Below, piece after piece: positions 2,878 through 20,985 of a stretch of 25,847 bases of DNA. Position 1 is the first letter of the stretch, and each line of letters begins with the position of its first letter. The DNA is from Minisyncoccota bacterium (GTDB lineage: Bacteria; Patescibacteriota; Minisyncoccia; Phycocordibacterales; PALSA-1337): NCBI GenBank assembly GCA_041667005.1, contig JBAYFW010000001.1, forward strand, positions 1-25,847. The letters are read 5' to 3'. The translations under genes and the position numbers were made by a program. The notes beneath the pieces were generated by a model. That model made no database searches and was not told where the DNA came from. It was given only the letters and a program-made list of their open reading frames with translations.

Positions 2878-5232
2878 CTACTTGATGCTTTTAATGATCG
2901 CTTCAATCTGATCTTTAAGATCAGGCCGATCTTTCTCCATACCACGCAAAGTCGCAACCGATTGAGAAATGTAACCGGCTGTATATTGGATCTGGGCTAG
3001 CCGGAGAGGCAGGTTTATATCAGACGGAGTGGCCGCGGCCAGCTTTTTGTAGACGGCGATAGCCTTGTCATATTCCTTGAGGCTAACATATGCCTGAGCC
3101 ATTTGGGCTGTCTCAAAGATCGTCGTGTCCGGAGCGGCGATCATCCGGGCGACATTTTCCTGTCCGGCTAGAACCAAAACCGTCAGATAGGCGGCCTTAA
3201 CCTGATAGAAATCCGGCGCCGCTTCATAGGCGCCCTTCAAGAGGCTCAAAGCTTCGGCCAGTTTGCCGTTATTCAGATACGTAGTGGCCAACTCCAAACT
3301 GATTGTTTGCTTAGCCGGAGAAAGCTCATGGGCGGAGAGAAGAATTGGTAAAGACTCGGTAAATTTGCCAACACTATTCAGATATGAACCGCCCAAAGTG
3401 TAGATCCGAGTGTCCTTAGGAGTAACAGAGATTTGGTCTTTGAGAGCCGTGTCAGCCAAAGCGAAGAAAGCCTGTTTGGTCGGACCAGGAACTTGAGCGG
3501 CGCTAATCGTCCGGCCGGCACAGAAGAGAATCTGTTCCCTGATCTCTTGATTGGCGGCGTAGGAATTGACATTCAAGGCGCTTTGGAACAGAGCGGCATC
3601 AGGGCTATTGCTACCGGAACAGCTCTGCATGGCATAAATCAGTTGGGTATTAGCCCGAATAACCCTGATATTAAAGAAGTAAATGCCGGCAATCAAAACC
3701 ACAATAACAATTGGCAAAACAATGTATTCGACGGCGTCATTCCTTGTCGGCTTGATTCCGAAAGGCCGGACCGCCCACTCACTTGAAAAAGTGTTGACCA
3801 GGCCTAGGGCAGCAAAGAACAAAGCGTAACTGGCCAGGTTATCGAAGACGAAGAAGTTATGGATAGCGTAGCCGGCCAAGAGCCCAGTTAGAAGGCTTTT
3901 CTCGGCCAGAGAAAGATTGTTCTTCCTCTGCCAAATGACTCGAAGGAATATGATATAGAGTGCGAGATAGGCAATAAGCCCAACAAAACCGGTCGCCACG
4001 AACCAGTCAAGAAAGACATTGTGAGCCCGGTCGAACCATTGCTCCTGGTTGTACATAGCCGGGTTGTAGTTGGCGTTGAAGATATAATTGAAATTCTCCT
4101 GGCCCCAACCGAAAATCGGTCTTTCCATAGTTCCTTTCAAAGCCATCGGCCAGATGTAACCGCGAGCCTGAGTCTTAACATCGGAGAGAGAAATTGTTGC
4201 CAAACGGTTCAGAACTTCGCTATTTTTTATGAACTGGCTGCCACGATTGAACCAGAAAACTAGACCGACTAGGATGATGAGAATAACGATGCCCGCCGAA
4301 ATAAACCTGGAAATCCTGGCTTCCTTCTTGGCCAGAAGAGCATATAGAACCAAGGCTAAAATAATTCCGCCAAGCAAGCCAAGAATCGTACCGCGAGTCT
4401 GTGTTTCAAAAATCAGAAATGAAAAAAGAAGGGGCAAGATGTAGTACGGATAAAGAACGGCCAAAACAAAGACGATAAAACCGACCAGGAATGACCAGAA
4501 ATGGGCTTTGATGAAAACCCCTAGAAGCGGCAAAAAGGCGCTTGATTCAGAGGCTCCGTAGACGAAAGTCAGGAAGATTATGGCCGACACGATCGAGAGC
4601 CAGAAGATCCAAAGACGTTCCCTTCTGATCTTCCAGGTCCACCTAACCTTCTCTCCCAGGAAAAGATAGACAACCATACCGGCATTGATGAGCATGTAGA
4701 CGGCCAGATAAGCCGAGTTACCAAGTGAGGCATCAAGACGAGTGCTACCTTGATGAATAGCCAGGACTCCACCCAATTGCAAAAGTCCATAAAGAGCGGC
4801 AACCAGAGCCGTACCTAAAGAAAAGAGCAGCCAATTCTTCCAATGGCGCCGACCCTCCTCGCCATGGCCAAAAAGACTAGTTGAAGTCACGAAGAACATC
4901 CAGAGATGAAGAACAGTGATCCAGCCTTCCATACGCTCAAAGTTAGACCAGAAGCTTCGAAGCGGATTAACTCCCAGAAGATTAGCCACCAAGCTAACTA
5001 GGGCGAATATGGAAATAGCCAGGAAAAGCGGGGTGATCTTCGGCCGATATTTCGCATCAATGAAGGCCAAGATAAGCCAAGCGGCGAAAGCCACCTCGAC
5101 CAACATTCGGAAATAGAAAGCTTTTCCGGTTATGAAAGGAAAAAATAAAGAGTTATCGACAATAAGCGGGAAAAAAGGGATCAGAAACAAAGCGGTAAAA
5201 GCCACAGCCGATGAGATTTTTTTTATTTGCAT
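2878..5232 (-). CDS. O-antigen ligase-like (Wzy_C/WaaL/PglL-type) polytopic membrane protein with C-terminal TPR-like repeats
   Basis: Many TM segments; GN-x-xYLA, TQTRG, RGYIWPMA...RPIFGWGQENF and DRAHNVFLD motifs; helical C-terminus with TPR-like patterns (LAQIQYTAG, KAIAVYKK). Confidence 0.85.
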   Translation of the reverse strand: MQIKKISSAVAFTALFLIPFFPLIVDNSLFFPFITGKAFYFRMLVEVAFAAWLILAFIDAKYRPKITPLFLAISIFALVSLVANLLGVNPLRSFWSNFERMEGWITVLHLWMFFVTSTSLFGHGEEGRRHWKNWLLFSLGTALVAALYGLLQLGGVLAIHQGSTRLDASLGNSAYLAVYMLINAGMVVYLFLGEKVRWTWKIRRERLWIFWLSIVSAIIFLTFVYGASESSAFLPLLGVFIKAHFWSFLVGFIVFVLAVLYPYYILPLLFSFLIFETQTRGTILGLLGGIILALVLYALLAKKEARISRFISAGIVILIILVGLVFWFNRGSQFIKNSEVLNRLATISLSDVKTQARGYIWPMALKGTMERPIFGWGQENFNYIFNANYNPAMYNQEQWFDRAHNVFLDWFVATGFVGLIAYLALYIIFLRVIWQRKNNLSLAEKSLLTGLLAGYAIHNFFVFDNLASYALFFAALGLVNTFSSEWAVRPFGIKPTRNDAVEYIVLPIVIVVLIAGIYFFNIRVIRANTQLIYAMQSCSGSNSPDAALFQSALNVNSYAANQEIREQILFCAGRTISAAQVPGPTKQAFFALADTALKDQISVTPKDTRIYTLGGSYLNSVGKFTESLPILLSAHELSPAKQTISLELATTYLNNGKLAEALSLLKGAYEAAPDFYQVKAAYLTVLVLAGQENVARMIAAPDTTIFETAQMAQAYVSLKEYDKAIAVYKKLAAATPSDINLPLRLAQIQYTAGYISQSVATLRGMEKDRPDLKDQIEAIIKSIK

Positions 5233-5295: not shown

Positions 5296-6405
5296 TCAGT
5301 AGGGCTCGCCCACTATTCTTTTACGAAGCTCCGGCACATCGACATAGCCCCCCAAGACCGGTTCATTTTCCGCCAATTTCACCAAAAGGCGCAATGTCGC
5401 CTTCTCGGTCGGGTGGGCCGGATCGTAGAGTTCCTTGTCTGACGATCCAATGGCCTTAAGATCTCGCAGATCATAAAAGCGATAGCCGTGCTGACTGAAT
5501 ACGGCCCTGAGTTGGCTCGGGACTTTCCGGATGTTATCTCCATATTCGCCGGGAAGAGACTGGATCTTTTCGTAAATCTCTTCGGCATAAGGAGAAAAGT
5601 AGCCGATAACATATACATTTCTCTGGCGGCTAGCTTCGAGGAAATTTCCGATTTCGGTTAAATTTTCCGGATCAGCCGTCGAATCAAAGCTGGCTACGGG
5701 CTTTCCAGCCACAATTCCCGATAGATTTTGTGCTATGAGATTTGGCACTTTTTCGATTATGACTTTAATCTCTTCAGCATTCCCACGGGAAAGGCTTCCG
5801 TCTTTTCGATATCCTTCGTGGCGAATCAGAGCATTCAAACCAATCGACGGCAAAATGGCTTTTTCCCTAAGTAGTCCGGACAGACTGAATTTCTTGTTAA
5901 GATAGCTTATATAAACCTCACGCCAACCGGAAACAAGAAAAAGCTTAAGGCCCGTAAGCATTTCTCCACCCCTCACGGTTTCCTCTGGAGCGCGCTCATC
6001 AGTTAGAAAATTAGATAAGTCCAAAAGAATTACTTTGAGTTTGGCCTCTTTTGGAATATTGGCTAGAAATTCACGCAATTCGGAAACTTTATGCATCGGC
6101 ACGCCGGCATTATAGAAAGCCGTCCCGTCCTTAAAGAAATCAGAACGAAAGGTTAGCGTCCGAGAGCGTCCGAACACGGCGATTTCCGGATCATGAACAA
6201 TCGTTTGGAAAATCTTATACGATTTGTCGTTTATGCCGGTAAAGGCCGACATGTAAAGAATATCTTGTGAACTTTCATTCTGCTGTCTGACAACCGTCTG
6301 GGCCGAAAGAAATTCTCCGCTCAATACGAATACGGTAAACGGAAATAATAGCAACACCGCGATCGGAATCAGGAAAATCAGAAGTTTTACTAGGAATAGT
6401 TTCAT
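5296..6405 (-). CDS. Membrane-anchored SGNH-like protein (DltD/AlgJ/PatB-type acyl relay)
   Basis: N-terminal TM helix, VFGRSR (candidate catalytic Ser block), C-terminal YDPAH (DxxH); starts 3 nt after the MBOAT stop. Confidence 0.7.
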   Translation of the reverse strand: MKLFLVKLLIFLIPIAVLLLFPFTVFVLSGEFLSAQTVVRQQNESSQDILYMSAFTGINDKSYKIFQTIVHDPEIAVFGRSRTLTFRSDFFKDGTAFYNAGVPMHKVSELREFLANIPKEAKLKVILLDLSNFLTDERAPEETVRGGEMLTGLKLFLVSGWREVYISYLNKKFSLSGLLREKAILPSIGLNALIRHEGYRKDGSLSRGNAEEIKVIIEKVPNLIAQNLSGIVAGKPVASFDSTADPENLTEIGNFLEASRQRNVYVIGYFSPYAEEIYEKIQSLPGEYGDNIRKVPSQLRAVFSQHGYRFYDLRDLKAIGSSDKELYDPAHPTEKATLRLLVKLAENEPVLGGYVDVPELRKRIVGEPY

Positions 6406-6408
6406 TGT

Positions 6409-7887
6409 TTAAAATTGGAAATATATGAAAGTCCGGGCGCCTAAATATCCAACTCCTAGAATCGTAAAAATTAGGAGATAATACCATCCCCAGCGAAGCA
6501 AAAGACTTTTGTTTTCGAAGATAAACTGGGTCTTTCGCTTAGCTTTCAAATATTGGATATACTCGAGAAGAATCATCGCCAGAACTATTACGAGAATCGA
6601 TTGCGAACGGAGGCCGATATTTTCAAGAGTAAATATATTCCTCCAATTGAGTAAGAATGACGGCAAATCGGAGAAAGCCCGTCCAAGTTTTTCGAATACC
6701 TGAAAGGCCTGGCCCAGGCTTGCCGCCCGGAAAAAGACAAAGCTGATCGTTACCAATATGAAGGTCGCGATCACCTGCCAAGATTTCTCTAATGACGGTC
6801 TTTCGGCAAGTCCAATCGCCCGAGAAAGGTGTTTCCTGATTTTGGCTGTCCAGATTGAAAATACGCTATACAGCCCATGAATCAAGCCGAAAACAACATA
6901 GGTCCAGTTGGCTCCATGCCATAAGCCAATCAAAGTGAAAGTCACGAGGAGACTCAAATTGATTCTTGATTTTGTCACTCTTTTACCGGCCAGGGCCAGC
7001 GGATAATAGAGGTAATCACGAAGCCAATTTGACAGAGAAATGTGCCAGCGGCGCCAGAAATCTCCGATCGATCGGGCTGAGAAAGGCCGATTGAAATTGT
7101 TAGTGAGATCATAGCCGAAGACCAAGGCCGAACCGACGGCTATATCAGAGTAGCCGGAAAAATCGCAATACAACTGGTACGAGAAAGCGAAAACGGCCAG
7201 GAAAACGGTAAAGCCGTTCATTACTTCGAGATTGGAGTAAACGGCGTTGACCAAGGGCGCGATCTTGTCGGCAATGACCAGTTTCTTCCAAAGGCCCCAG
7301 AGTATGAGTTCCAGTCCACGTCTGACCTTCAATGAATCGAAAGGATGTTGTTCCCGGAATTGGTGGAGCATATGCTGAGGCCTTTCGATCGGTCCGGCCA
7401 CAAGTTGGGGAAAGAACATTATATAGAGCGCGTATATTCCGAGATTACGTTCCGGTTCCTGTTTGCCGCGATAGACCTCGATCACATAACTCAGACTTTG
7501 GAAGATATGGAAAGACAGTCCCAGAGGCAAGGTAATTTGGAGGATAACGAGCGGATAATTCCAATGGATGATGCTGGCCAAAGCTGCTGCGTTTTCGCTA
7601 AAGAAGTTAAAGTACTTGAAAAAGAAAAGTGCACCGAGGTTGGCAACGAGGCTACCGATAAGGAAAAATCTCCGCCTTGTGCCCGTTGCCTTCGAAATCC
7701 GCAAACCGAAAAAGAAATCGGTCGCGATCAACGCAAACAAGATGAGAACGTAGGCCGGCACGAAAGCCATGTAGAAGTAGCAGCTGGCCACAAATAGAAG
7801 CGCCGGCCGGTACCGGTTCGGGATCGAGTAGTAAGCGATGAAAACCGCCGGCAAAAATATCAGAAACTGGAGAGAGTTGAAAAGCAT
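6409..7887 (-). CDS. MBOAT family O-acyltransferase (AlgI/DltB/PatA-like)
   Basis: MLFNSLQF start, LPLGLSFHIFQ, FFPQLVAGPIER, YCDFSGYSDIA, DFWRRWHISLS, catalytic GLWHGA, C-terminal FIYFQF. Start placed at the ATG at 7887, adjacent to the SDR stop, rather than 7914. Confidence 0.95.
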   Translation of the reverse strand: MLFNSLQFLIFLPAVFIAYYSIPNRYRPALLFVASCYFYMAFVPAYVLILFALIATDFFFGLRISKATGTRRRFFLIGSLVANLGALFFFKYFNFFSENAAALASIIHWNYPLVILQITLPLGLSFHIFQSLSYVIEVYRGKQEPERNLGIYALYIMFFPQLVAGPIERPQHMLHQFREQHPFDSLKVRRGLELILWGLWKKLVIADKIAPLVNAVYSNLEVMNGFTVFLAVFAFSYQLYCDFSGYSDIAVGSALVFGYDLTNNFNRPFSARSIGDFWRRWHISLSNWLRDYLYYPLALAGKRVTKSRINLSLLVTFTLIGLWHGANWTYVVFGLIHGLYSVFSIWTAKIRKHLSRAIGLAERPSLEKSWQVIATFILVTISFVFFRAASLGQAFQVFEKLGRAFSDLPSFLLNWRNIFTLENIGLRSQSILVIVLAMILLEYIQYLKAKRKTQFIFENKSLLLRWGWYYLLIFTILGVGYLGARTFIYFQF

Positions 7888-7888
7888 T

Positions 7889-8638
7889 TTAAGATACGCA
7901 TTCCGGCGCGACAAGAACTGTCAGTGTCTTCACATTTTGCGAAGCCTCCGAGCAAAGAATTGCGACCTGCTCGGCCACATCTTCTGCCGTCGCCAATTTT
8001 TTCGAGGGAATTTTTTCTCGAACCATATCCAGAAAGGCTTTCGGCGTGGCTTTATTCAAACCTCCGGCCATCACCCCCGGCGCGACGGAGTAGACTCTGA
8101 TACTATAGGCAGCCAACTCCTCTCTGAAAGCGACCAGCATTCCTTGAACGGCGTATTTGACCATACTATATGCGCCTCGTGCTTTGGTATTGCGGTCAGT
8201 CACCACACCCGCCGTGGTAATGCCGACAATAACTCCCTCCTTATGCTCTTTGAGCCGGCTTACGCAATTTGAAAGAAAATTGAAGCTACCGAAAACACCG
8301 GCTTCGAATTGCTCGCGAACATCTTCAAGACTCGAAGCCGAAAGCTGTTTCGGCCTGGGTAGAGAGCCGCTGGCGTCTATAACGGCAAAGATCGGCCCTA
8401 TTTCCCCCTCGATTCTTTTCAGAACTTCCTTAGTAAACCGGGTGTCCCCGAAATCGCATTGATAAGCCCGATGGCCGCCTCCTGAAAGCCTGGCCAGAGC
8501 TTGGTCGACAACATCCTCTTTAGTCGTATGATAAAGCAAAGCGATAATAAAACCGTCTTGGGCTAAATGGCGAACAATGGCTGAGCCGACGAAACCCATG
8601 CCGCCGGCAACCACCGCTATTCTCAAATTTTTATTCAT
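7889..8638 (-). CDS. Short-chain dehydrogenase/reductase (FabG-like ketoreductase)
   Basis: VAGGMGFVG Rossmann motif, YSMVK (YxxxK), VAPG. Confidence 0.9.
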   Translation of the reverse strand: MNKNLRIAVVAGGMGFVGSAIVRHLAQDGFIIALLYHTTKEDVVDQALARLSGGGHRAYQCDFGDTRFTKEVLKRIEGEIGPIFAVIDASGSLPRPKQLSASSLEDVREQFEAGVFGSFNFLSNCVSRLKEHKEGVIVGITTAGVVTDRNTKARGAYSMVKYAVQGMLVAFREELAAYSIRVYSVAPGVMAGGLNKATPKAFLDMVREKIPSKKLATAEDVAEQVAILCSEASQNVKTLTVLVAPECVS

Positions 8639-8668
8639 GATTAATGCTGATATCTTTAAACGATTTTA

Positions 8669-9088
8669 TTAGGCAAGCACTCGGGTTGTCGCTTCTCCCG
8701 TGGCCGCAATCTCTTGGCCTTTGGAAATGGAAATATCAATCTTGACTATTCTAGTGGAATGACTCCTCGATGTCACCGTGCCTATAACTTTAAGAGTCTC
8801 GCCGATAAAAACCGGCTTTTTGAATAAGAGCGTCTGACCGAGATAGAGACAGCGCTTACCGGGAATGTGCATTCCGACGAGTCGCGAACAAAGCGATCCG
8901 ACTAACATTCCCTGAACAAGACGCCGGCCAAATTCGGTTTTTTGGGCATATTCCTCATCCAAATGAAGCGGGTTTTGATCGCCGCTAAGTCTGGCGAAAG
9001 TCTCCACGTCTTTTTCAGTGAAAGCGTGTTCGAAAGTTATCGTGTCGCCCACTTCGATGTCTTTAACTGAAAGGTCCGGTATTTCCAT
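8669..9088 (-). CDS. MaoC/PhaJ-like hot-dog dehydratase
   Basis: FARLSGDQNPLHLDEEYA...FGRRLVQGML and FKKPVFIGETL. Confidence 0.92.
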   Translation of the reverse strand: MEIPDLSVKDIEVGDTITFEHAFTEKDVETFARLSGDQNPLHLDEEYAQKTEFGRRLVQGMLVGSLCSRLVGMHIPGKRCLYLGQTLLFKKPVFIGETLKVIGTVTSRSHSTRIVKIDISISKGQEIAATGEATTRVLA

Positions 9089-9089
9089 G

Positions 9090-9314
9090 TCATTTTCCCC
9101 TCGCTTTTACCGCTTTTCTCAAGTCACCGACCGTTTTGGCATTCATAACTTCATCCATGGTGAAAGAGAAGTCGAAGCGTTTTTCCAATTCGGCGATGAA
9201 AAGCAGATAATTCATTGAGTCCCAAGCGGGAATATCTTTGGCGGACATTTCATTGCGAATATCCTCGATCTTGATCTTGAATATCTGAGCCAGTATTTCA
9301 TTAAAACTTTCCAT
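9090..9314 (-). CDS. Acyl carrier protein
   Basis: 74 aa, acidic, with WDSM phosphopantetheine attachment motif, ELEKRFD and TVGDL. Confidence 0.92.
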   Translation of the reverse strand: MESFNEILAQIFKIKIEDIRNEMSAKDIPAWDSMNYLLFIAELEKRFDFSFTMDEVMNAKTVGDLRKAVKARGK

Positions 9315-10362
9315 AGGTGGTTGTTATCCAATCGGGACCGACCGGAACCGAAGGTATATTGAAATAATTATTTCCATTAAGGAGCTTTCCCGCGAATTCC
9401 TGGGCTGGAGCGTTTTTAGGCGTTTCTTCCAGAGCTATCGTCAGCCTGTCTGCCCCCTCTTCGCGAGCCCGCTTCATAATAGTCGTGAGAAATGCGTCCT
9501 CGACGCCGCGTCCGAAAACACGGCAACTCATGAGCAACGACTGGATATACCACTCTTTCTCTTTCTTCGAAATCAAAGCAAAAGCAATTATACCGTAATT
9601 GCCGAATTTATCGAGGAGGGAGGCGTGGAATACGGCACAAGAAGGGTCTTCGGCGCAAATCCGAATCTCCTCGACCGAAAGGGGCCGCTTCAAAGTATTG
9701 AATTGATTGGTCTTTCCGGTAAGCTGGGAAAGACGCTCAAGTGAATCCGTGTTATCTTCGTATACTTCGAGAGCGAGAGACAAGCTTCTCAGGAATTCTT
9801 CCCGACTTCCATGCCTTTTCTCTTCCTCTTTCCTTAAACGCTCCGTGACATAGAGATTACCCCGCATTTTATCCTCGTTCGTAATCGCTTCTTTACCGAA
9901 ACAATCGAGCGTGTTTAAAAAACGGGCATAGTCTCCGGGATCGGCTGGCAGATCGGGCGTCAGAACTTCCGGGACAAGCTCCCGGACCAAGCCGCGGTTA
10001 ATATGATCGTCATCAAGGAAGACCATGGAATCAAGGCCGATATTCAGTTCCGCGGCCAACTCGCGGATGTTCTGGGCCTTGTCATTCCAATTGATGCGGC
10101 TAGCCGCGAAATGTTTCTCCTTAAGGATCATGTTGGGATGATTACGGATCACATTCCAAGCCTCTTCGGGATTATTTCGGCTATTGATCGCCAAGATCAC
10201 GCCCCGACCGTAAAGATCGAGAATGGCCTGCTGGAAAGCCAAATAGGCGTTGCCCGGCCAAACAACCGAGAGGACGATATTTTCGAAACCGTCTTCTCCG
10301 ACAATGCCTCCCCAAAGAGTATTGTCCAAATCCAGCACCAGGCATTTTTTCACGGAATTCAT
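9301..10362 (-). CDS. FkbH-like HAD-IIIC glyceryl transferase/phosphatase
   Basis: KCLVLDLDNTLWGG (DxDxT), INSRNN, RINWNDKA, FLDDD, KTNQFN, DKFGNYG, LLMSCRVFGRGVE. Confidence 0.93.
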   Translation of the reverse strand: MNSVKKCLVLDLDNTLWGGIVGEDGFENIVLSVVWPGNAYLAFQQAILDLYGRGVILAINSRNNPEEAWNVIRNHPNMILKEKHFAASRINWNDKAQNIRELAAELNIGLDSMVFLDDDHINRGLVRELVPEVLTPDLPADPGDYARFLNTLDCFGKEAITNEDKMRGNLYVTERLRKEEEKRHGSREEFLRSLSLALEVYEDNTDSLERLSQLTGKTNQFNTLKRPLSVEEIRICAEDPSCAVFHASLLDKFGNYGIIAFALISKKEKEWYIQSLLMSCRVFGRGVEDAFLTTIMKRAREEGADRLTIALEETPKNAPAQEFAGKLLNGNNYFNIPSVPVGPDWITTTYGKF

Positions 10363-10383
10363 GATGATGGAATTGGGAATATA

Positions 10384-10737
10384 TTAAAAAGCCGCAATGG
10401 CGACGGCCATCTTTGCCGAATGAGAGATGGAAATATGAAGGGAAAGTTTTTTCTCTTTGCTCCAGATTTCTGGCCGACCATCGAGATCATGCCGCACTTC
10501 CAGTTCAATGAAAGGGTACTCGGCGGTACCAAGAGCCTTGCTGGCGGCTTCTTTGGCCGCAAAGATGCCGGCAAAATGCGGCGCGGAATCTTTATGCTCC
10601 AGACAATAAGCGATTTCCAATTTTGAAAATGTTTTGACCAAAAAGCGCCGCTTGATCTGGCTTCGAATAGACTTGAAACGAGAGATCTCCGCCACATCGA
10701 CGCCCAGTCCGCGCAAGCCAATTTTAACCGTCTTCAT
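10384..10737 (-). CDS. acpS: Holo-ACP synthase (phosphopantetheinyl transferase)
   Basis: GLGVDVAEISRF, FAGIFAAKEAASKALG, ISISHS. Confidence 0.93.
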   Translation of the reverse strand: MKTVKIGLRGLGVDVAEISRFKSIRSQIKRRFLVKTFSKLEIAYCLEHKDSAPHFAGIFAAKEAASKALGTAEYPFIELEVRHDLDGRPEIWSKEKKLSLHISISHSAKMAVAIAAF

Positions 10738-10743
10738 CTGGCG

Positions 10744-10796
10744 ATTGTATCAATAAACTGGCAACCATTCAATTCACCAATTTTCTCTGTTATACT
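10744..10796. promoter_or_regulatory. Divergent extended -10 elements for acpS (-) and the FkbM gene (+)
   Basis: Minus strand: TGA-TACAAT (10752-10744), 6 nt before the acpS ATG. Plus strand: TGT-TATACT (10788-10796), 7 nt before ATG 10804. Confidence 0.6.
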
Positions 10797-10803
10797 AAAC
10801 TTC

Positions 10804-11598
10804 ATGAAACGTCTCATAAAAAACGCAATTGTCGGACGCCAATGGTCACAAAGATTTTTTACGAAACTCCTGGGTATTTCACTTGAAGGGCTAAATATGG
10901 TCGGAGCCGGTCGAGGACCGCAAACATGGGGAGAAGCCTGGGCGATCAAATATGTCCTCTCGAAGAGCCGGGCCAACCCGGTTGTGTTTGACGCTGGAGC
11001 ACAGGGCGGAGATTACATGAACGAGATCTTGAATATTTCCCCCACTTGCACTATATACGCTTTCGAACCGGCAAAAAGAGCTTTTATCAAACTTCAAGAA
11101 ATATTTCAAAATCATCCAAATATCAATTTGATAAATATCGCGCTCGGAGCCGAAAATACCACCACTCCTCTCTTTTCGTCCGAAGGAGTCGACGGAGTCG
11201 ATAGTTTGTATAAATTGCCGGATACCAAAGCTAACCATTTTGTAGTTAGCCGCGAAGTGCACGTATCTACCATAAATGGCTTTTGTAAAGATCGAGGAAT
11301 TTCATATATTGATTTACTCAAACTCGATATCGAAGGAGGAGAACTAGCCGCCCTGAAGGGTGCCGAGACTATGATCAAAGAAGAAACAATATCTTTCATT
11401 CAATTCGAACACTCTAATGCTTCATTCTATGCCGGGTATCGTTTTAAAGAAATATTTGATTTACTTTCACCTCACTATAGAATTTATCGCATCCTCAGGC
11501 ACGGCCTGACAAAAATCTTGGAGCCGAGTGCGCTCCAAGATTTGCCTTTCGCAGTCAACTATCTGGCAGAATCCAGAAAGATTAAGGAGCGATTGTAA
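10804..11598 (+). CDS. FkbM-family SAM-dependent methyltransferase
   Basis: VFDAGAQGG, IYAFEP, LLKLDIEGGE, IQFE. Confidence 0.9.
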   Translation: MKRLIKNAIVGRQWSQRFFTKLLGISLEGLNMVGAGRGPQTWGEAWAIKYVLSKSRANPVVFDAGAQGGDYMNEILNISPTCTIYAFEPAKRAFIKLQEIFQNHPNINLINIALGAENTTTPLFSSEGVDGVDSLYKLPDTKANHFVVSREVHVSTINGFCKDRGISYIDLLKLDIEGGELAALKGAETMIKEETISFIQFEHSNASFYAGYRFKEIFDLLSPHYRIYRILRHGLTKILEPSALQDLPFAVNYLAESRKIKERL

Positions 11599-12676
11599 TC
11601 TGGGCACTTATCCCCGAAGACGCTCCGAAGCCAGTCCATGTGTTGCTTTGCGTATAAGAAGTTGTATTAATGATACCGTTGCTGTCCCCAACTTGGCAAC
11701 CACTAAAATCTCCTTCCCTTTGGGTCCAATTTGAACTACTAAAACCATTTTGACCCACCGCTGTGCAAGTAATGTAGACGGACCAATCATTTGTACCTGT
11801 CACGCTACCTGTACCACCACTACCTGTCGTCTGGGAGAATGTGAACGGATCCGAAACGGCCGGTTGACTGATCAGACGATACCAATCCGGTTGACTTGTA
11901 CCGACATTGCTATATGTAACTACTTGCTCAGAAATATACCCTCCTCCTGAACAGCTCAAAGTATGAGAACCAGTGGAAGGGTTCGCCAAAGTCTGTATTT
12001 CAAGCCAATTGGAACCACCGTTTCCCCACTGAGCAGTTGAAAGGTGATTCAAAGAAGTTCCGTTATAAGTGCAAGTTGAGTTGCCAGATGAACTTTTTAT
12101 GATTGCGACGATCATAAAATTACCGCTTGCGTTATTAAAAGAGAAAGAACCAGAAGAATCCGCTCCTGAACTGCTGAAGGAAATAGCAGAAACCGGTACT
12201 TTATAATTTAGACCGTAAGTGCCCAAATAATAGCTTCCATCATATAAGAAATGCGCCGTATCTATACTATTAGCCGTACTCGTCAAAGTTGGAGTAACAC
12301 CATTTGGCCACTTGACATCTGATGGCCAAGTCACCGTACGGCCACCCGTCGAGTCTTGGCCGAGAATTAAAGTGTACTCACCGCCGGCTTGCCCACCGCC
12401 AAAAACAAGAGTAGGACTATTCGAAAGTGTCAGCGACTGCACATTCCCAGCTGACCATAAAATGGTCGACGATGTCGCTGTCACCAATCTACTGTATATC
12501 GCACCAGTAACATCTAGTTTAGATTGTGGATTTATATTTCCAATTCCAACATTTCCATTTTCATCAATATTAAATAATCCGGCTGCAAAAGACTCAAATG
12601 GAGAAGCGAAGGCCCAGCCACAGATTCCAACTACTGCTAATAGAAACGAGACAAAGATTTTTTTGTTTTTACTCAT
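11582..12676 (-). CDS. Secreted Ser/Thr/Gly-rich beta protein with phage-fibre-like segments (putative adhesin)
   Basis: Signal peptide MSKNKKIFVSFLLAVVGICGWAFA (start placed at 12676), GNVGIGNINPQSKLDV motif, QDSTGGRTVTWPSDVKWPNGVTPTLT segment; the 3' end overlaps the convergent FkbM gene by 17 bp. Confidence 0.6.
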   Translation of the reverse strand: MSKNKKIFVSFLLAVVGICGWAFASPFESFAAGLFNIDENGNVGIGNINPQSKLDVTGAIYSRLVTATSSTILWSAGNVQSLTLSNSPTLVFGGGQAGGEYTLILGQDSTGGRTVTWPSDVKWPNGVTPTLTSTANSIDTAHFLYDGSYYLGTYGLNYKVPVSAISFSSSGADSSGSFSFNNASGNFMIVAIIKSSSGNSTCTYNGTSLNHLSTAQWGNGGSNWLEIQTLANPSTGSHTLSCSGGGYISEQVVTYSNVGTSQPDWYRLISQPAVSDPFTFSQTTGSGGTGSVTGTNDWSVYITCTAVGQNGFSSSNWTQREGDFSGCQVGDSNGIINTTSYTQSNTWTGFGASSGISAQITIAP

Positions 12677-12786
12677 AGAGAGTATGAGATTAAAATTGAT
12701 TAATCGTTTACTAATACCTGCAATCATAACATTTACAAATGATCGTGATATTTCATACATGTGAATAAGATTCTATAAAACCGCCC

Positions 12787-12824
12787 CTGACCTTACTTGA
12801 CACCTTTTGACACCCTGCTATCAT
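12787..12824 (+). promoter_or_regulatory. Promoter of the HTH-wzm operon overlapped by three 10-bp-phased direct repeats
   Basis: CTGACCTTAC TTGACACCTT TTGACACCCT; -35 TTGACA (12797-12802), 16 bp, TGC-TATCAT (12819-12824), 8 nt, ATG. Confidence 0.7.
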
Positions 12825-12832
12825 AGACCATC

Positions 12833-13078
12833 ATGGAGGAAATAAAGCCCTTAGCCATATACACTACCGACGAAACCCGCAAGGCTTTAAGGATTAGCGA
12901 GAGTACCGTCAAAAGAATGCTCAAAAAGGGCCTCCTCAAGGCCAATAAGGTCGGCGGCCAGTACCGCATCTTGGGCAAAGAGATCCTTCGCCAAGTCTCA
13001 CCTGAACTAGAAAAAGAGGCCGTCCAGTCCTATCTGTCCCTCAAGAAAAAAGTCGTCAATAAATTAAACAAATGGTAG
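12833..13078 (+). CDS. Small MerR-like/excisionase-type (HTH_17) DNA-binding protein
   Basis: YTTDETRKALRISESTVKRMLKKGLLKANKVGGQYRI, followed by a basic C-terminal helix. Confidence 0.85.
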   Translation: MEEIKPLAIYTTDETRKALRISESTVKRMLKKGLLKANKVGGQYRILGKEILRQVSPELEKEAVQSYLSLKKKVVNKLNKW

Positions 13079-13923
13079 ACTTCAACGATATGTCATTAAA
13101 CTCTAGTCCGACAATTACCATACGTCCAAAAAAAATCTTCCGTATTTCCGATCTTTCAGAATTATGGAAATACCGCGAACTTATGTATTTTTTTGTCTGG
13201 CGTGATCTCAAGGTACGCTATAAGCAGACTTTCGTCGGCGTCGGCTGGGCCCTTTTTCAACCATTTATAAATATGGTTGTCTTTTCGATCTTTTTCGGCC
13301 AACTGGCCAAGATACCTTCCGATGGTGTTCCTTACCCTATTTTCGTCTATGTCGGCCTTCTTTTTTGGCAATTTTTCTCCAGCGCCCTAGCCGATACCAG
13401 CAACTCCTTGGTCGGCAACCAGGCCATCATCACCAAAGTTTATTTTCCTAGGCTAATTCTACCCATTTCTTCTGTGGCCACGAAATTCGTGGATTTTCTG
13501 GTTTCCTCGGTCATCCTGGTCGGCCTGATGTTCTATTACGGCTATACACCACATCTCATCGGTTTTTTGCTCACTCCTCTACTCTTGGCTATCAGCTTCA
13601 TGGCGGCCGTTGGCGGTGGACTCTTCTTGGCGGCCATTAATGTCAAATACCGCGATGTCCGCTATGTTCTCCCCTATTTCATCCAATTACTGATGTTTTT
13701 GACCCCGGTTATCTACCCGGCTTCGATCGCCGGAAAATACTCCATCTTCTTGGCCCTGAACCCAATGATGGGAGTCATCCAGAACGCTCGAGCCGCCCTT
13801 CTCGGCACCGCCCCGATCAACTGGACCCTTCTTGGCATATCCTTCGTCGCTTGTCTCATCCTTTTATTTGTCGGCATCTATGTCTTCAAAAAGGTCGAGA
13901 GATATTTCGCCGACATCGTCTGA
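13072..13923 (+). CDS. wzm: Polysaccharide ABC exporter permease (Wzm/RfbA-like)
   Basis: RDLKVRYKQT..G..WA..QP, KVYFPR, YRDVRY, TPVIYP, LNPM. Confidence 0.9.
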   Translation: MVDFNDMSLNSSPTITIRPKKIFRISDLSELWKYRELMYFFVWRDLKVRYKQTFVGVGWALFQPFINMVVFSIFFGQLAKIPSDGVPYPIFVYVGLLFWQFFSSALADTSNSLVGNQAIITKVYFPRLILPISSVATKFVDFLVSSVILVGLMFYYGYTPHLIGFLLTPLLLAISFMAAVGGGLFLAAINVKYRDVRYVLPYFIQLLMFLTPVIYPASIAGKYSIFLALNPMMGVIQNARAALLGTAPINWTLLGISFVACLILLFVGIYVFKKVERYFADIV

Positions 13924-13930
13924 ACCACAT

Positions 13931-15205
13931 ATGAATCCCATAATCGAAGTAAAAAACATCGGCAAGAGATACAAGATCACCCACGAACGCGGGCGGTATG
14001 TGGCTTTGCGCGACGTTCTTACGGCCATTATCCGAAAACCTTTCGCTTATATGAAGCAAAAAGCCAAATCGGTGGCCGGCCTTTCGAAGAAAGAGGATTT
14101 CTGGGCCCTCAAAGACATAAATTTCACCATAAATAAAGGCGAAGTTGTCGGGATTATCGGAAGAAACGGCGCGGGCAAATCGACTCTTCTCAAGATTCTT
14201 TCTCAAATTACGCCGCCGACGGACGGCGAAATAATCATGCGCGGCAGCGTTGGCAGTCTTCTTGAAGTTGGAACTGGTTTTCATCCGGAATTGACCGGCC
14301 GAGAGAATATCTTTCTGAACGGCGCGATCCTCGGTATGGGTCGGAAAGAAATCGCCAAGAAATTCGATCAGATAGTCGATTTCGCCGGCATCGCCAAATT
14401 CCTCGATACTCCCGTCAAGTATTACTCTAGTGGGATGTACGTTCGATTGGCTTTCTCGGTGGCCGCCCATATGGAACCGGACATTCTCCTAGTTGATGAA
14501 GTCTTGGCCGTCGGCGACGCCGAATTCCAGAAGAAGTGCTTGGGTAAAATGGAAGAAGTTACACGGAAAGACGGGCGGACAATCATCTTCGTTAGCCACA
14601 ATCTCGACGCCATCGAAAAGTTATGCAAAAAGACCATCCTCCTCAAAAACGGCCAGATCGAAGCTATCGGAGAAACAGCCGGCATAATCAAGCGTTATCT
14701 TTCTGAAAACGAGATCGATTCGAAAATTCCGCTCAGAGAGCGGCCCAGTCACGGCGCCGGCAAAGTGATCTTTACCGGCTGCGAACTACTGGGCAACACG
14801 CCGGAAAACGGTTCCCTGAAAATTAAGATTTCTTACGAAAACACAACAAGCCATGCTTACGAAAATGCCCGGATTTCTCTCTCCATAAAAAACGCCGAGG
14901 GAATGCATCTTTCCAATATGACCAATAGCGTTCTTGACCAGCGAATCGATTTCTGGCCGGGCAAAGGCGACATTGTCCTAGAGATCAAGAATTTCAATTT
15001 GGAGAGCGGAGAATACTGGATCGACCTCTTTATGTCGACCGATGACGTCAATTCGGAAATTTTGAGCTGGATGGCCGATGCCGCTCTGGTCAAGATCAAC
15101 AACGACACCTTCTATCGGACGGAAAAGCTTCCACCGGTGCCCTGCAAGATGTTCTTCGATTTCACATTCCAAAATGTCAAACCTACGGAAACTACTCAGA
15201 AATAA
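13931..15205 (+). CDS. wzt: Polysaccharide ABC exporter ATPase with C-terminal Wzt_C-like domain
   Basis: GRNGAGKST, YSSGM, ILLVDE, VSH, plus a ~170-aa C-terminal extension. Start placed at ATG 13931, just after the wzm stop. Confidence 0.9.
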   Translation: MNPIIEVKNIGKRYKITHERGRYVALRDVLTAIIRKPFAYMKQKAKSVAGLSKKEDFWALKDINFTINKGEVVGIIGRNGAGKSTLLKILSQITPPTDGEIIMRGSVGSLLEVGTGFHPELTGRENIFLNGAILGMGRKEIAKKFDQIVDFAGIAKFLDTPVKYYSSGMYVRLAFSVAAHMEPDILLVDEVLAVGDAEFQKKCLGKMEEVTRKDGRTIIFVSHNLDAIEKLCKKTILLKNGQIEAIGETAGIIKRYLSENEIDSKIPLRERPSHGAGKVIFTGCELLGNTPENGSLKIKISYENTTSHAYENARISLSIKNAEGMHLSNMTNSVLDQRIDFWPGKGDIVLEIKNFNLESGEYWIDLFMSTDDVNSEILSWMADAALVKINNDTFYRTEKLPPVPCKMFFDFTFQNVKPTETTQK

Positions 15206-15875
15206 ATTCTATTCGGCCAGAAACAGGCTTTTCCCGGCCAAGGAGTACGAAAATCAATCGTATTCCCAGGAAGGCGAAGACATGGTCTTGAATAAAATCT
15301 TTGGCGGCAAAAACCGCGGCTTTTATGTCGATGTCGGGGCTCACCATCCCTACCGTTTTTCCAACACTTATTTTTTCTACAAAAAAGGCTGGAGAGGAAT
15401 AAATATCGATCCGAATCCGGGCACCGTCGCGCTCTTCAGCAAAAAAAGGCCTCGTGATATAAACTTGGAAATTGGTATTAGCTCCAAGAATGGCACAATG
15501 AAGTATTACGAGTTTAGTGAGCCAGCCTTAAACAGTTTCTCCGAAGCACTTTCCCAGGAAAGAAACCGGCTTAGCGGCTGCCGGATAGTGTTCATAAAAG
15601 AAGTGCCAGTCGTCCGGCTAGATAAGGTTCTCGATGAGAATATCAGGGACGGACAAACTATAGATTTCATGAGTATTGACGTCGAGGGACATGAGCTTGA
15701 AGTTTTGAAGTCCAATAATTGGAGTAAGTACCGGCCGACCGTTATCCTGGTCGAGATACTAGATTTTGATATGATAAGACCCAGCCAGTCAGAAATCTTC
15801 AATCTTCTGGTATCATTAGGCTACAAGCTGTACGCCAAGACGGGATTAACCAACATTTTTATCTTGAAGCCCTAG
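15174..15875 (+). CDS. FkbM-family methyltransferase
   Basis: YSQEGED, YVDVGAHHP, WRGINIDP, FMSIDVEGHE. Start placed at ATG 15174. Confidence 0.9.
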   Translation: MSNLRKLLRNKFYSARNRLFPAKEYENQSYSQEGEDMVLNKIFGGKNRGFYVDVGAHHPYRFSNTYFFYKKGWRGINIDPNPGTVALFSKKRPRDINLEIGISSKNGTMKYYEFSEPALNSFSEALSQERNRLSGCRIVFIKEVPVVRLDKVLDENIRDGQTIDFMSIDVEGHELEVLKSNNWSKYRPTVILVEILDFDMIRPSQSEIFNLLVSLGYKLYAKTGLTNIFILKP

Positions 15876-15925
15876 AGAAATTTGTGGCGTTTATCTACTT
15901 TTATAAGAATTCTTAAGATAAAAAA

Positions 15926-16684: not shown

Positions 16685-16702
16685 GTCGCCAAAATCACCA
16701 TT

Positions 16703-19011: not shown

Positions 19012-19012
19012 A

Positions 19013-19984: not shown

Positions 19985-20044
19985 TAGCCAGAAGACCTGA
20001 CTCGTCAAAATAGAAATATCGTGATAAAGTGGCCTCAAATAAAT

Positions 20045-20956: not shown

Positions 20957-20985
20957 CTTAGGCTCGGTCTTTGCCGATTTTTCTT

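Follow-up and report, generated by a model that had tools for sequence, protein, structure and literature searches.

A seven-gene cassette of a Patescibacteria genome probably encodes a carrier-dependent form of MBOAT–SGNH envelope acylation, a reading to which a probability of roughly 0.6 is assigned. Herein, FkbH, MaoC, and SDR would produce lactyl-ACP, and the acyl group would pass via a tyrosine of the MBOAT and a serine of an SGNH-type protein to an exported glycan. The cassette occupies positions 5296 to 10737 on the reverse strand of the window, meaning the whole stretch of 25,847 nucleotides that was analyzed. The source genome (G000), of a small Saccharibacteria-like bacterium, measures 0.89 Mb and is 91.5% complete, and the runs holding the sequence are DNA groundwater metagenomes. 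The ORF listing returns AcpS, FkbH, ACP, MaoC, SDR, MBOAT, and a 369-aa protein, all seven co-oriented and located where the preliminary description of this DNA had placed them. Successive genes are separated by 21, −14, 1, 30, 1, and 3 nt, the negative value denoting an overlap. The motifs claimed for these proteins (DLDNT, MSCR, WDSM, DQNPLH, YSMVK, WHG, and GRS/DPAH) are all present in the translations. The promoter proposed along with them corresponds to a sigma-70-like site, TTGAAT-17 nt-TACAAT with a TG upstream (10744–10772, reverse strand), which ends 6 nt 5′ of the AcpS ATG. Being a consensus match only, this site is consistent with a possible leaderless start of AcpS.

The first three genes provide the carrier and its loader. 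AcpS (117 aa, 10384–10737) matches PF01648 with 54 bits and TIGR00516 with 67 bits against a cut-off of 59.8; no other PPTase was found in the genome, and AcpS, judged by its domains, appears to be a dedicated holo-ACP synthase that would supply holo-ACP. CoaE was not found in the 91.5%-complete genome, which leaves the CoA source for AcpS unexplained and weighs against the proposal. The stand-alone FkbH (353 aa, 9301–10362) reaches 294.2 bits with TIGR01686 (cut-off 146.65) and consists of a HAD-IIIC phosphatase and an acyl-transfer domain. Of 65 homologous loci, 59 to 65 keep its D11-L-D13-N-T15 and S279-C280-R281 motifs unchanged. FkbH proteins are known to use 1,3-bisphosphoglycerate to form glyceryl-ACP (PMC7489565). 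By this established chemistry, the protein is predicted to load D-glycerate: 1,3-bisphosphoglycerate would be dephosphorylated, and glycerate held on Cys280 would move to the phosphopantetheine of Ser33 of the ACP. PGK and GAPDH are present in the genome, which supports a supply of this substrate. The ACP (74 aa, 9090–9314; PP-binding PF00550, 28.9 bits) carries Ser33 within W-D-S-M. It is nearer to AcpP-type ACPs than to DltC, which counts against a Dlt-like reading.

The genome contains exactly one each of ACP, AcpS, MaoC, MBOAT, and FkbH, and the ACP is its only PP-binding protein. The window had been claimed to lack ketosynthase and adenylating genes; neither a ketosynthase nor an AMP-binding enzyme was found there or elsewhere in the genome, which is 91.5% complete. 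With single-copy parts and no other loader found, FkbH is the only visible loader of the ACP. Pta was likewise not found in this genome. The preliminary description had also named a role of MaoC and SDR on CoA esters as a reading that would contradict its own; with a sole ACP and with negative searches for a ketosynthase, an AMP-binding enzyme, Pta, and CoaE, that role is weakened.

The acyl group would be processed by the next two enzymes. MaoC (139 aa, 8669–9088; PF01575, MaoC_dehydratas, 74.7 bits) is an (R)-hydratase/dehydratase of the single hot-dog type whose D37 and H42 lie in D37-Q-N-P-L-H42; among relatives of solved structure, 3-hydroxyacyl-thioester dehydratase 2 and PhaJ come closest. 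MaoC is predicted to take off the 3-hydroxyl group of glyceryl-ACP, giving enolpyruvoyl-ACP, which would tautomerize to pyruvoyl-ACP. The SDR (249 aa, 7889–8638; adh_short and adh_short_C2) has FabG-like NCBIfam matches, every one under its cut-off, and is predicted to reduce pyruvoyl-ACP to lactyl-ACP. The Y and K of its Y157-S-M-V-K161 motif are shared without exception by 11 cassette SDRs. The conversion of glyceryl-S-ACP to lactyl-S-ACP by DH-KR proteins is described in PMC6162330 and in PMC4765723, which cites He et al. 2014 for it.

We infer a lactyl group, as opposed to a glyceryl or pyruvoyl one. An alternative that keeps the same relay, unlikely yet the likeliest of three, holds that glyceryl, pyruvoyl, or another C3 group is transferred; MaoC and SDR would then work on only a fraction of the pool, or their order or direction would differ. 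FkbH alone yields glyceryl-ACP, and several FkbH loci contain MaoC and no detectable SDR (for example, L031-L035 and L034 of Thaumarchaeota), so that they would stop at pyruvoyl. In addition, the cassette-clade SDRs carry Thr at the position where the catalytic Ser is usual, and MaoC, as a single hot-dog hydratase, differs from the DH of PKS type whose activity on glyceryl-ACP was shown; the latter point also weighs against the main reading. To our knowledge, O-lactyl esters have rarely been reported in bacterial glycans, which speaks against lactyl as well. However, both enzymes are kept in all close cassettes, and they are fused into a single polypeptide in Prochlorococcus, an alphaproteobacterium, Blastocatellia, and Omnitrophota (L080, L065, L029, and L068). 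Fusion in at least four phyla together with this retention speaks for successive reactions that share a substrate. By established hot-dog and SDR chemistry, a β-dehydratase followed by a reductase on a 2,3-dihydroxy-acyl thioester would have just one sensible outcome, the 2-hydroxy product, that is, lactyl.

The MBOAT (6409–7887, PF03062, 97 bits) comprises 492 aa when read from the ATG at 7887, where its homologues start, and 501 aa as an ORF from the TTG at 7914. Its top NCBIfam model is DltB with 173 bits, below the cut-off of 375, which is to be weighed against the Dlt-like reading. DltB is also its only sequence relative in the PDB (E = 1e-30, across residues 131–396). The DltB-like core contains His291 (R-W-H291) and His333 (W-H333-G; TTG numbering), and hydropathy analysis reveals two extra hydrophobic segments at the C terminus. 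The protein ends with F-I-Y-F-Q-F (codons at 6412–6429, reverse strand), an instance of the FxYxxF acyl-shuttle motif defined in PMC12148441, with the tyrosine at residue 498 if counted from the TTG and at 489 if counted from the ATG. F-[IL]-Y-[FWY]-[QK]-F is the ending of every long MBOAT that is full-length and has a link to FkbH or the family of the 369-aa protein. FkbH loci with a DltB-length MBOAT of 395 aa lack this tail. They encode two single-TM, DltX-like microproteins of ~40 to 53 aa ending in FIYTLF and FIYNNF, one of which sits between fkbH and acp, and additionally a GDSL/AlgX-type protein. By analogy to DltB/DltX and PatA, the ACP would hand the acyl group to the MBOAT on the cytoplasmic side, and His333 would help to place it on Tyr498 of the MBOAT's own tail at the outer face.

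The seventh protein (369 aa, 5296–6405) has a membrane anchor at its N terminus and an SGNH-type, DUF1574-like domain. It has no Pfam or NCBIfam match. The SGNH-like nature claimed for it agrees with its AF2 model (pLDDT 89.4), which gives an SGNH fold: the top Foldseek matches are GDSL/SGNH hydrolases with a probability of 1.0, with PatB at rank 36, and structural matches in the ESM Atlas include DUF1574 (TM 0.72) and DltD (TM 0.54). Its family has 2,868 representatives, one of which passes the PF07611 cut-off, and the protein is considered a remote relative of DUF1574. G79, S81, N99, and H331 do not vary among 16 homologues, S81 and H331 lying in the motifs G79-R-S81 and D328-P-A-H331. Hence, it is predicted to be the final acyltransferase with Ser81, His331, Asp328, and Asn99 as candidate residues; it would take the acyl group onto Ser81 and form an ester with a hydroxyl of the exported polymer. 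A gene of this family adjoins an MBOAT wherever the contig showed neighbors, which one 1.5-kb contig did not.

The cassette is a recurrent unit of Patescibacteria and not a one-off. MBOAT and partner gene are present in 11 of the 12 sampled loci with a close FkbH homologue (at least 58% identity), which bears out the co-occurrence with fkbH-acp-maoC-SDR that had been put forward as a gene-neighborhood test. The seven-gene order or near variants thereof are found in G211, L020, L023, L024, L025, L026, L027, L098, L099, and L100. Among 401 sampled genomes of the phylum, FkbH occurs in 5, MBOAT in 24, and both in 3; the two genes are adjacent in all three, with ~0.3 expected by chance. Adjacency is also seen in Chloroflexota, Omnitrophota, an alphaproteobacterium, Desulfocapsaceae, and Magasanikbacteria. 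Weighed against this, MBOAT + 369-aa-family pairs also exist without FkbH (L097 and L021), and the carrier-linked MBOAT clade is weak in neighbor-joining (27% for 14 members and 63% for a core of 12).

A second and less likely alternative is that two unrelated modules lie side by side. Herein, the MBOAT and the 369-aa protein would use acetyl-CoA to O-acetylate a polymer in the manner of PatA/PatB or AlgI/AlgJ, and the FkbH-ACP-MaoC-SDR product would go to another cytoplasmic acyltransferase, for example, for amino-sugar N-acylation. The C. jejuni flagellin glycosylation locus, which yields N-glyceroyl-type pseudaminic acid derivatives, contains the FkbH-domain gene cj1302. Furthermore, 21 of the 24 MBOAT genomes in the Patescibacteria sample are without FkbH. 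The MBOAT is present in 10 of 65 FkbH genome loci, so FkbH-ACP-MaoC mostly occurs without it; in L016 and L019 the partner of this module is a GNAT, and in Thaumarchaeota a hexapeptide transferase is located nearby. The module is thus not tied to MBOATs, which weighs against the main reading. MBOATs with a fused FxYxxF motif have been generalized as acyl-CoA users that work without a carrier protein (PMC12148441), whereas an ACP donor is proposed here; this, too, weighs against the main reading. Against two separate modules, the window holds no other acyltransferase candidate, as its other unknown ORFs resemble GT-A proteins or unknowns, and no acyltransferase other than the MBOAT is visible in the genome inventory. 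Neither Pta nor an AMP-binding acyl-CoA synthetase was found in G000, and the genes are interleaved in G158-type loci, where the DltX-like microprotein separates fkbH from acp, and the MBOAT has SGNH genes on one side and acpS on the other. In another Patescibacterium (G206), AcpS-ACP is directly upstream of a fused-motif MBOAT (FIYFQF) and its partner, and the loader is an AMP-binding enzyme; this MBOAT is the closest (47%) among those without FkbH linkage. This chassis with a different loader supports the ACP as MBOAT donor, and the ACP is therefore suggested to donate directly to the fused-motif MBOAT of the cassette. The G206 chassis, the MaoC-SDR fusions, the DltX-like microproteins, and the SGNH fold came as extra support for the main reading.

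The genes around the cassette point to the acceptor. A co-oriented gene 63 nt downstream (2878–5232, reverse strand) encodes an O-antigen-ligase-like Wzy_C membrane protein (PF04932, 83.7 bits) with TPR repeats, which may be an eighth operon member and act as glycan ligase or polymerase; a Wzy_C gene directly follows the cassette in L099 and is nearby in L024. On the other side, a divergent FkbM-family methyltransferase (10804–11598, forward strand; PF05050 and TIGR01444) is found, and Methyltransf_21 genes flank the cassette in L023 and L024 too. By profile and domain assignments, a glycan operon follows at 12833–22955 (forward strand), encoding an HTH protein, Wzm, a Wzt/TagH-like ATPase, FkbM and other methyltransferases, an AsnB-type amidotransferase, GT-A-like proteins, GT1, and GT2. 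This operon is the candidate source of the acceptor polymer, and its Wzm/Wzt-exported glycan would be the likeliest acceptor. The least likely alternative, in which peptidoglycan, a lipid-anchored polymer, or a surface protein glycan accepts the same acyl group, draws on MBOAT–SGNH systems that act on peptidoglycan (PatAB) and lipoteichoic acid (Dlt) (PMC12148441), on the flanks of L098 and L100, which are not obviously glycan-assembly genes, and on the ligase-like Wzy_C gene, but most cassettes lie within glycosyltransferase/methyltransferase clusters.

Every part of the interpretation as Dlt-like acylation that can be tested in silico held, and no paper describing such a system was found in the literature. 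Compared with known systems, the cassette would follow a Dlt-like logic and is proposed as a cousin of teichoic-acid D-alanylation. Dlt uses the adenylating DltA; the cassette would instead use a three-enzyme module that makes a C3 hydroxy-acyl group from glycolysis. The net DH-KR chemistry of MaoC and SDR would be the same as for the FR901464 and lankacidin starter units, and acyl transfer from an ACP to a fused-motif MBOAT would, if true, be a first.

The cassette consists of seven tightly packed ORFs on the minus strand (10737–5296), spaced by 21, −14, 1, 30, 1, and 3 nt. Pfam and NCBIfam name six of them, all minus-strand genes: AcpS as the first gene of the cassette, a stand-alone FkbH (TIGR01686, 294.2 bits against a cut-off of 146.65), an ACP of 74 aa, a MaoC hot-dog dehydratase of 139 aa (PF01575), an SDR of 249 aa, and an MBOAT (PF03062, 97 bits), for which the best named model is DltB (TIGR04091) with 173.4 bits against a cut-off of 375. 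The seventh, a protein of 369 aa, has no family match in Pfam or NCBIfam. These ORF calls agree with the preliminary description of seven co-oriented, tightly packed genes (gaps and overlaps from −14 to 30 nt), and every sequence motif listed therein was recovered from the translations. Its leaderless-type promoter stands as a prediction: a TTGAAT-17-TACAAT site is located 6 nt upstream of the AcpS ATG, which is a match to the consensus and compatible with a leaderless transcript. The genome measures 0.89 Mb in 98 contigs and is 91.5% complete, and its nearest FkbH loci belong to MAGs of 'Candidatus Saccharibacteria'. In a search for transcript evidence, the sequence of the window was found in groundwater metagenome runs, all of them DNA runs. 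Nearest loci, habitat, and the 0.5–2 Mb size of all sampled genomes of its phylum identify the organism as a member of the Patescibacteria (CPR).

Within this genome, the parts of the cassette are dedicated to it. Whole-genome scans retrieved exactly one PP-binding protein, one AcpS, one MaoC, one MBOAT, and one FkbH, and all five lie in the cassette. The preliminary description had seen no ketosynthase or adenylation gene in the window, and this extends to the whole assembly: ketoacyl synthase, AMP-binding enzyme (PF00501), phosphotransacetylase (Pta), and CoaE were not found in the 91.5% complete genome. With ketosynthase, AMP-binding enzyme, and Pta not found, the ACP, MaoC, and SDR have no fatty-acid, polyketide, or β-oxidation pathway in which they could act. 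An origin of MaoC and SDR as strays from fatty-acid or PHA metabolism was considered and rejected, as the genome has neither a ketosynthase nor a second ACP. FkbH is hence the sole visible loader of the ACP in this genome. Its TIGR01686 match spans positions 2–314 of the 323 in the model, and the HAD motif DxDxT (D11, D13, and T15) as well as S279-C280-R281 are present, these residues being invariant in 59–65 of 65 homologous loci. The ACP gene overlaps the stop codon of FkbH by 14 nt. Judged from its sequence, FkbH would load D-glycerate from 1,3-bisphosphoglycerate onto this cognate ACP; PGK and GAPDH are both encoded in the genome, which makes 1,3-bisphosphoglycerate available. CoaE (dephospho-CoA kinase) is unmatched in the genome, yet AcpS requires CoA. 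The organism may take up CoA from a host, or the CoaE and Pta genes may lie within the missing 8.5% of the genome.

The subsequent enzymes are intact with respect to their catalytic residues. MaoC retains the hydratase Asp and His, and its closest relatives of solved structure are a 3-hydroxyacyl-thioester dehydratase and PhaJ. The SDR retains Tyr and Lys, with Thr occupying the usual Ser position. β-Dehydration of 2,3-dihydroxypropanoyl-ACP would yield the enol of pyruvoyl-ACP, and reduction of the keto or enol form would then give lactyl-ACP. We infer that lactyl-ACP is the only chemically sensible outcome of both enzymes acting in sequence. That MaoC and SDR work as a pair is supported by gene fusions in other lineages. 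Pfam places MaoC and adh_short in a single polypeptide adjoining FkbH in Prochlorococcus (locus L080, 8151–9341) and in an alphaproteobacterium (L065, 11360–12841); BLAST adds MaoC–SDR fusions in Blastocatellia and Omnitrophota (L029 and L068) and points to four more long MaoC ORFs (L051, L059, L066, and L069) as likely fusions. The fusions likewise support a functional analogy with the starter pathway of FR901464 and lankacidin, in which DH-KR proteins produce lactyl-S-ACP from glyceryl-S-ACP (PMC4765723, citing He et al. 2014; PMC6162330).

The MBOAT is a homologue of DltB that carries the tyrosine-shuttle motif on the same chain. Its own homologues begin at an ATG at 7887, 1 nt past the SDR stop, so that the protein probably has 492 aa; residue numbers herein follow the longer ORF of 501 aa that starts with TTG at 7914. 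Residues 131–396 align with DltB, which provides the only sequence relatives of solved structure (PDB, E = 1e-30), and W-H333-G and R-W-H291 align with the W-H-G and R-W-H of DltB, respectively. By its TIGR04091 score, it is a homologue, not an equivalog, of DltB, and it has a C-terminal extension of ~100 aa. Past the DltB-alignable core, it contains two hydrophobic segments (~432–458 and 479–498) and terminates in FIYFQF. The pattern F-[IL]-Y-[FWY]-[QK]-F forms the C terminus of all full-length long MBOATs that are linked to FkbH or to the family of the 369-aa protein. In the window, the MBOAT is the sole ORF ending in FxYxxF, and no separate DltX-type microprotein is present. In the current model, DltB moves D-Ala from DltC via the Tyr of the FxYxxF tail of the microprotein DltX to the Ser of DltD, and in other MBOAT–SGNH pairs such as PatA/PatB, the MBOAT itself bears the hexapeptide, on two additional helices, and the donor is acetyl-CoA, without a carrier protein (PMC12148441).

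A second architecture is found in the FkbH loci of the genome G158 (L018/L049) and in L038 and L039. Herein, the MBOAT has the length of DltB (395 aa), lacks the fused tail, and is slightly nearer to DltB (E = 3e-37) than the MBOAT of the window (E = 1e-30). Instead, these loci encode two DltX-like single-TM microproteins of ~40–53 aa with the ends PFIYTLF and VFIYNNF, in L018 at 9151–9321 and 7627–7761 on the minus strand. One is positioned between fkbH and acp and the other right after the SDR gene; a GDSL/AlgX-type protein adjoins the short MBOAT. The loci are of Magasanikbacteria-type Patescibacteria. The rival explanation that acyl loading and MBOAT relay are two unrelated modules is hard to reconcile with this interleaved order of microprotein, fkbH, acp, and SDR genes. 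With a pair of putative shuttle proteins and a pair of SGNH-like genes (374 and 393 aa), the L018 locus might serve two acceptors.

The fused-motif MBOAT also occurs with another loader. In the genome G206 (L112, 1473–8006), an AMP-binding enzyme, an α/β hydrolase, an inositol-1-phosphate-synthase-like protein, AcpS, ACP, an MBOAT ending in FIYFQF, and a partner of 363 aa are encoded together; an inositol monophosphatase gene lies near them. By gene content, this locus represents a putative second, distinct carrier-dependent MBOAT cassette. Its MBOAT is 47% identical to that of the window, the highest value among MBOATs without linkage to FkbH (the remainder show 31–43%). Two different loaders are thus found with an ACP gene that immediately precedes that of a fused-motif MBOAT. 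In a neighbour-joining tree with 200 bootstraps, the G206 MBOAT is placed beside the FkbH-linked patescibacterial clade, and FkbH-linked MBOATs from other phyla are scattered over the tree. The grouping of carrier-linked MBOATs as one clade was given no weight (27% for the 14-member clade and 63% for its core of 12).

The seventh protein, which the preliminary description had called SGNH-like, is predicted to adopt an SGNH fold. Its AlphaFold2 model (pLDDT 89.4, pTM 0.87) was compared with the PDB by Foldseek, and all top matches were GDSL/SGNH hydrolases (probability 1.0, TM by target 0.5–0.65, E ~2e-3), with PatB at rank 36. An alignment of 16 sequences shows G79, S81, N99, and H331 to be invariant and D328 to be near-invariant, and a hydrophobic anchor is located at the N terminus. 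Structure neighbours in the ESM Atlas include clusters bearing DUF1574 (TM 0.72) and DltD clusters (TM 0.54). By sequence, neither PF04914 (DltD) nor PF07611 (DUF1574) matches the protein even at E up to 1, and its family profile retrieves nothing meaningful among PDB chains (best E = 2). Among its relatives, P0285, a family member from the profile search, matches PF07611 over nearly the full model length with 42.9 bits against a cut-off of 29.1, and P0240 and the L017 orthologue, the latter a row of the query alignment, reach 17.7 bits each against the same cut-off. DUF1574 is a member of the SGNH clan without known function or structure (PMC9487903). The 369-aa family had appeared rare from the 15 relatives found by a word-based search, which was overturned by 2,868 representative clusters (50% identity) in an exhaustive profile search; 873 of these score at E up to 1e-30, and nearly all measure 350–400 aa. 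Wherever the contig showed neighbours, the gene of this family adjoins an MBOAT gene, with or without the FkbH module (one contig was too short). Two further neighbours of MBOATs, a protein of 329 aa in L024 and one of 374 aa in L018, were rejected as members (hhalign probability <2%) and are, by sequence comparison, of other partner families: one L018 partner matches the Pfam models ALGX and GDSL, and GDSL_2 matches the L024 protein weakly.

The gene order is conserved beyond the window. Among 401 sampled genomes of the phylum, all of 0.5–2 Mb, a true FkbH is found in 5 and an MBOAT in 24; both occur in 3 genomes and are adjacent in each. The close loci examined, with FkbH at least 58% identical, comprise that of the genome G211 (L017) and L020, L023, L024, L025–L028, and L098–L100. 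The gene-neighbourhood check that had been proposed for MBOAT/SGNH pairs with fkbH-acp-maoC-SDR turned out in favour of the association, as the order AcpS-FkbH-ACP-MaoC-SDR-MBOAT-partner, or small rearrangements of it, was found in 11 of 12 loci. Most close cassettes sit within clusters of glycosyltransferase and methyltransferase genes. Two paralogues of the 369-aa family are present in the cassette of L020 (8875–11095), and a second MBOAT with partner in L023 (13781–15818) and L099 (4220–6560), a hint that a single locus may deal with several acceptors or acyl groups. L021 (5872–11107) and L022 contain SDR, MBOAT, and 369-aa-family genes without FkbH, ACP, and MaoC, preceded by a polytopic membrane protein of 559 aa and an ORF of 46 aa; this arrangement may be a decayed or re-wired cassette.

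On a wider scale, a word-based search returned more than 7,800 FkbH-like proteins, the best 120 of which have ~345–420 aa and are at least 60% identical to the query. FkbH beside a fused-motif MBOAT is found outside Patescibacteria in Chloroflexota, Omnitrophota, alphaproteobacterial, and Desulfocapsaceae MAGs. The FkbH-ACP-MaoC core also occurs in marine Thaumarchaeota, Nitrospinota, Prochlorococcus, and Acidobacteriota, often without an MBOAT, which is present in 10 of 65 FkbH loci. Without it, the core pairs with other transferases, namely a GNAT (L016 and L019) or a hexapeptide transferase nearby (L031). In two Patescibacteria (L016, 12215–13228; L019, 7141–8166), AcpS-FkbH-ACP-MaoC-SDR is followed by a GNAT-domain protein of ~340 aa with the conserved C terminus DQDRPNPH and no MBOAT, which suggests that the acyl group is the same but is transferred in the cytoplasm. 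In the marine Thaumarchaeota (ammonia-oxidising archaea; L031–L033 and L035), the order is FkbH-ACP-MaoC-AcpS, near a hexapeptide-repeat transferase and sugar-nucleotide genes; BLAST detected neither SDR nor MBOAT in these four loci. Their FkbH of ~580 aa is a long form with an N-terminal extension like that of L016, which gave a weak FkbH_N match. The Chloroflexota MAG L034 has a nearly identical gene order with an MBOAT attached.

The cassette lies near glycan genes. Upstream, a divergent FkbM-family methyltransferase gene is followed by a plus-strand glycan operon that encodes Wzm, a Wzt/TagH-like ABC ATPase with Wzt_C domain, further methyltransferases, an AsnB-type amidotransferase, and GT-A-like, GT1, and GT2 glycosyltransferases. 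The operon is headed by an excisionase-family HTH protein of 81 aa (12833–13078, plus strand; TIGR01764, 31 bits against a cut-off of 28.8), ahead of which lies a strong promoter-like site (12797–12824). Between the FkbM gene and the operon, a minus-strand ORF of 392 aa (11582–12760) without Pfam or NCBIfam match runs antisense to its neighbours. A co-oriented gene for a Wzy_C (O-antigen-ligase-like) and TPR membrane protein of 784 aa (2878–5232, minus strand) lies 63 nt downstream of the cassette, followed by MurB and then SecA. A Wzy_C gene is also found directly downstream of the cassette in L099 and near it in L024, and the protein may be a functional eighth member that joins the glycan to its anchor. 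The window has no acyltransferase candidate other than those of the cassette.

The best-supported reading is a Dlt-like, carrier-dependent MBOAT–SGNH relay with a C3 hydroxy acid from 1,3-bisphosphoglycerate as acyl group, most likely lactate. This group would be delivered to an exported polymer, for which the product of the neighbouring ABC-transporter glycan operon is the most probable candidate. The sequences show the gene content, the intactness of the catalytic motifs, genome-wide dedication, conserved synteny, fusions, and interleaving, together with the modelled fold of the seventh protein; we infer every catalytic step, the hand-over from ACP to MBOAT, the acyl group, and the acceptor. 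We give a probability of roughly one half to the joint proposal, namely that the cassette is the first carrier-dependent envelope acylation besides Dlt, that it contains the first fused-motif MBOAT fed by an ACP, that it decorates a surface polymer of ultra-small Patescibacteria with O-lactyl esters whose acyl group comes straight from 1,3-bisphosphoglycerate, and that it combines two surface-decorating modules that are interchangeable across bacteria and archaea. The preliminary description knew of no characterised pathway with this composition, and in a literature search that left most subscription journals uncovered, no paper was found that connects FkbH with MaoC or with an MBOAT relay. 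FkbH and MBOAT appear together only in the aeruginosin and suomilide clusters, where they act at unrelated steps; no paper joins FkbH with MaoC in a search that scarcely reached subscription journals, HAD-IIIC gave nothing relevant, and glyceryl-, lactyl-, and pyruvoyl-ACP gave secondary-metabolite papers only, with subscription journals mostly outside the search.

If the proposal is true, the Dlt paradigm of carrier protein, MBOAT, tyrosine shuttle, and SGNH protein reaches past D-alanine and Firmicutes. The predicted ACP-to-MBOAT hand-over would contradict the published rule by which MBOATs bearing the shuttle motif on their own chain take the acyl group from acyl-CoA. FkbH-ACP-MaoC(-SDR) would be a portable C3-acyl donor, spread from Thaumarchaeota to Prochlorococcus, and AcpS-ACP-MBOAT-SGNH would be a portable unit for export, in which an adenylating enzyme can also act as loader. 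Polyketide starter-unit chemistry would thereby serve primary envelope biogenesis in organisms without fatty-acid or polyketide synthase, and a function would be given to thousands of stand-alone FkbH-like proteins of ~350 aa and to the DUF1574-related SGNH family with its ~2,900 representative clusters at 50% identity. In bacteria of the Candidate Phyla Radiation, lactyl or glyceryl esters would be a new envelope modification; the surfaces of these cells, almost unknown in their chemistry, mediate an episymbiotic lifestyle. Since each step should change the mass of the 74-aa ACP by a defined amount, the proposal is directly testable.

Among known systems, four share features with the cassette. 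By locus description, it resembles the cj1302 locus of C. jejuni, in which an FkbH-domain gene lies inside a surface-glycan modification locus (flagellin glycosylation). There, the modification consists of glyceroyl-type N-acyl groups on pseudaminic acid, which would be put on the nucleotide sugar in the cytoplasm, and no MBOAT/SGNH relay is reported. With the lactyl-ACP starters of trans-AT PKS (FR901464, lankacidin, and bryostatin-type loading modules), it shares an FkbH in which both the HAD and the Cys motif are present, the ACP that goes with it, and a dehydratase followed by a reductase, the likeness being extended by the fused, DH-KR-like MaoC–SDR proteins of other phyla. However, the dehydratase is a single MaoC hot-dog and not a PKS DH, all parts stand alone, and in a genome without ketosynthase, the product is predicted to be passed to the MBOAT relay instead of a PKS. 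As in PatA/PatB, AlgI/AlgJ/AlgX, and similar pairs, the MBOAT measures ~490 aa, carries two additional helices at its C terminus with FxYxxF as the last residues, and is followed by an SGNH-type partner. Those systems are described as dependent on acyl-CoA and devoid of a carrier protein (PMC12148441), whereas the cassette has a co-operonic AcpS, ACP, and ACP-loading module, acyl-CoA-forming enzymes were not found in its genome, and its partner belongs to a DUF1574-related family without a characterised member.

The Dlt system of Firmicutes (DltA, DltC, DltB, DltX, and DltD), which D-alanylates teichoic acids, shares a dedicated small carrier protein adjoining a DltB-related MBOAT, the FxYxxF tyrosine shuttle, an N-terminally anchored final transferase of the SGNH clan (predicted for the cassette), and, by analogy, the presumed extracytoplasmic esterification of an exported polymer. 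The sister loci of the G158 type come closer still, with an MBOAT of DltB length and separate DltX-like microproteins (FIYNNF and FIYTLF). In contrast to Dlt, the shuttle motif of the window is fused to the MBOAT, whose score of 173 stays below the cut-off of the DltB model (375); for the seventh protein, Pfam gives no DltD match and the TM to DltD models is 0.54, and the cassette brings its own AcpS. DltA or any other adenylating enzyme was not found in the window or in its 91.5% complete genome, and the carrier is instead predicted to be loaded by FkbH from 1,3-bisphosphoglycerate, with subsequent processing by MaoC and SDR. The acyl group delivered by this route would hence be a neutral C3 hydroxy acid in place of the cationic amino acid of Dlt.
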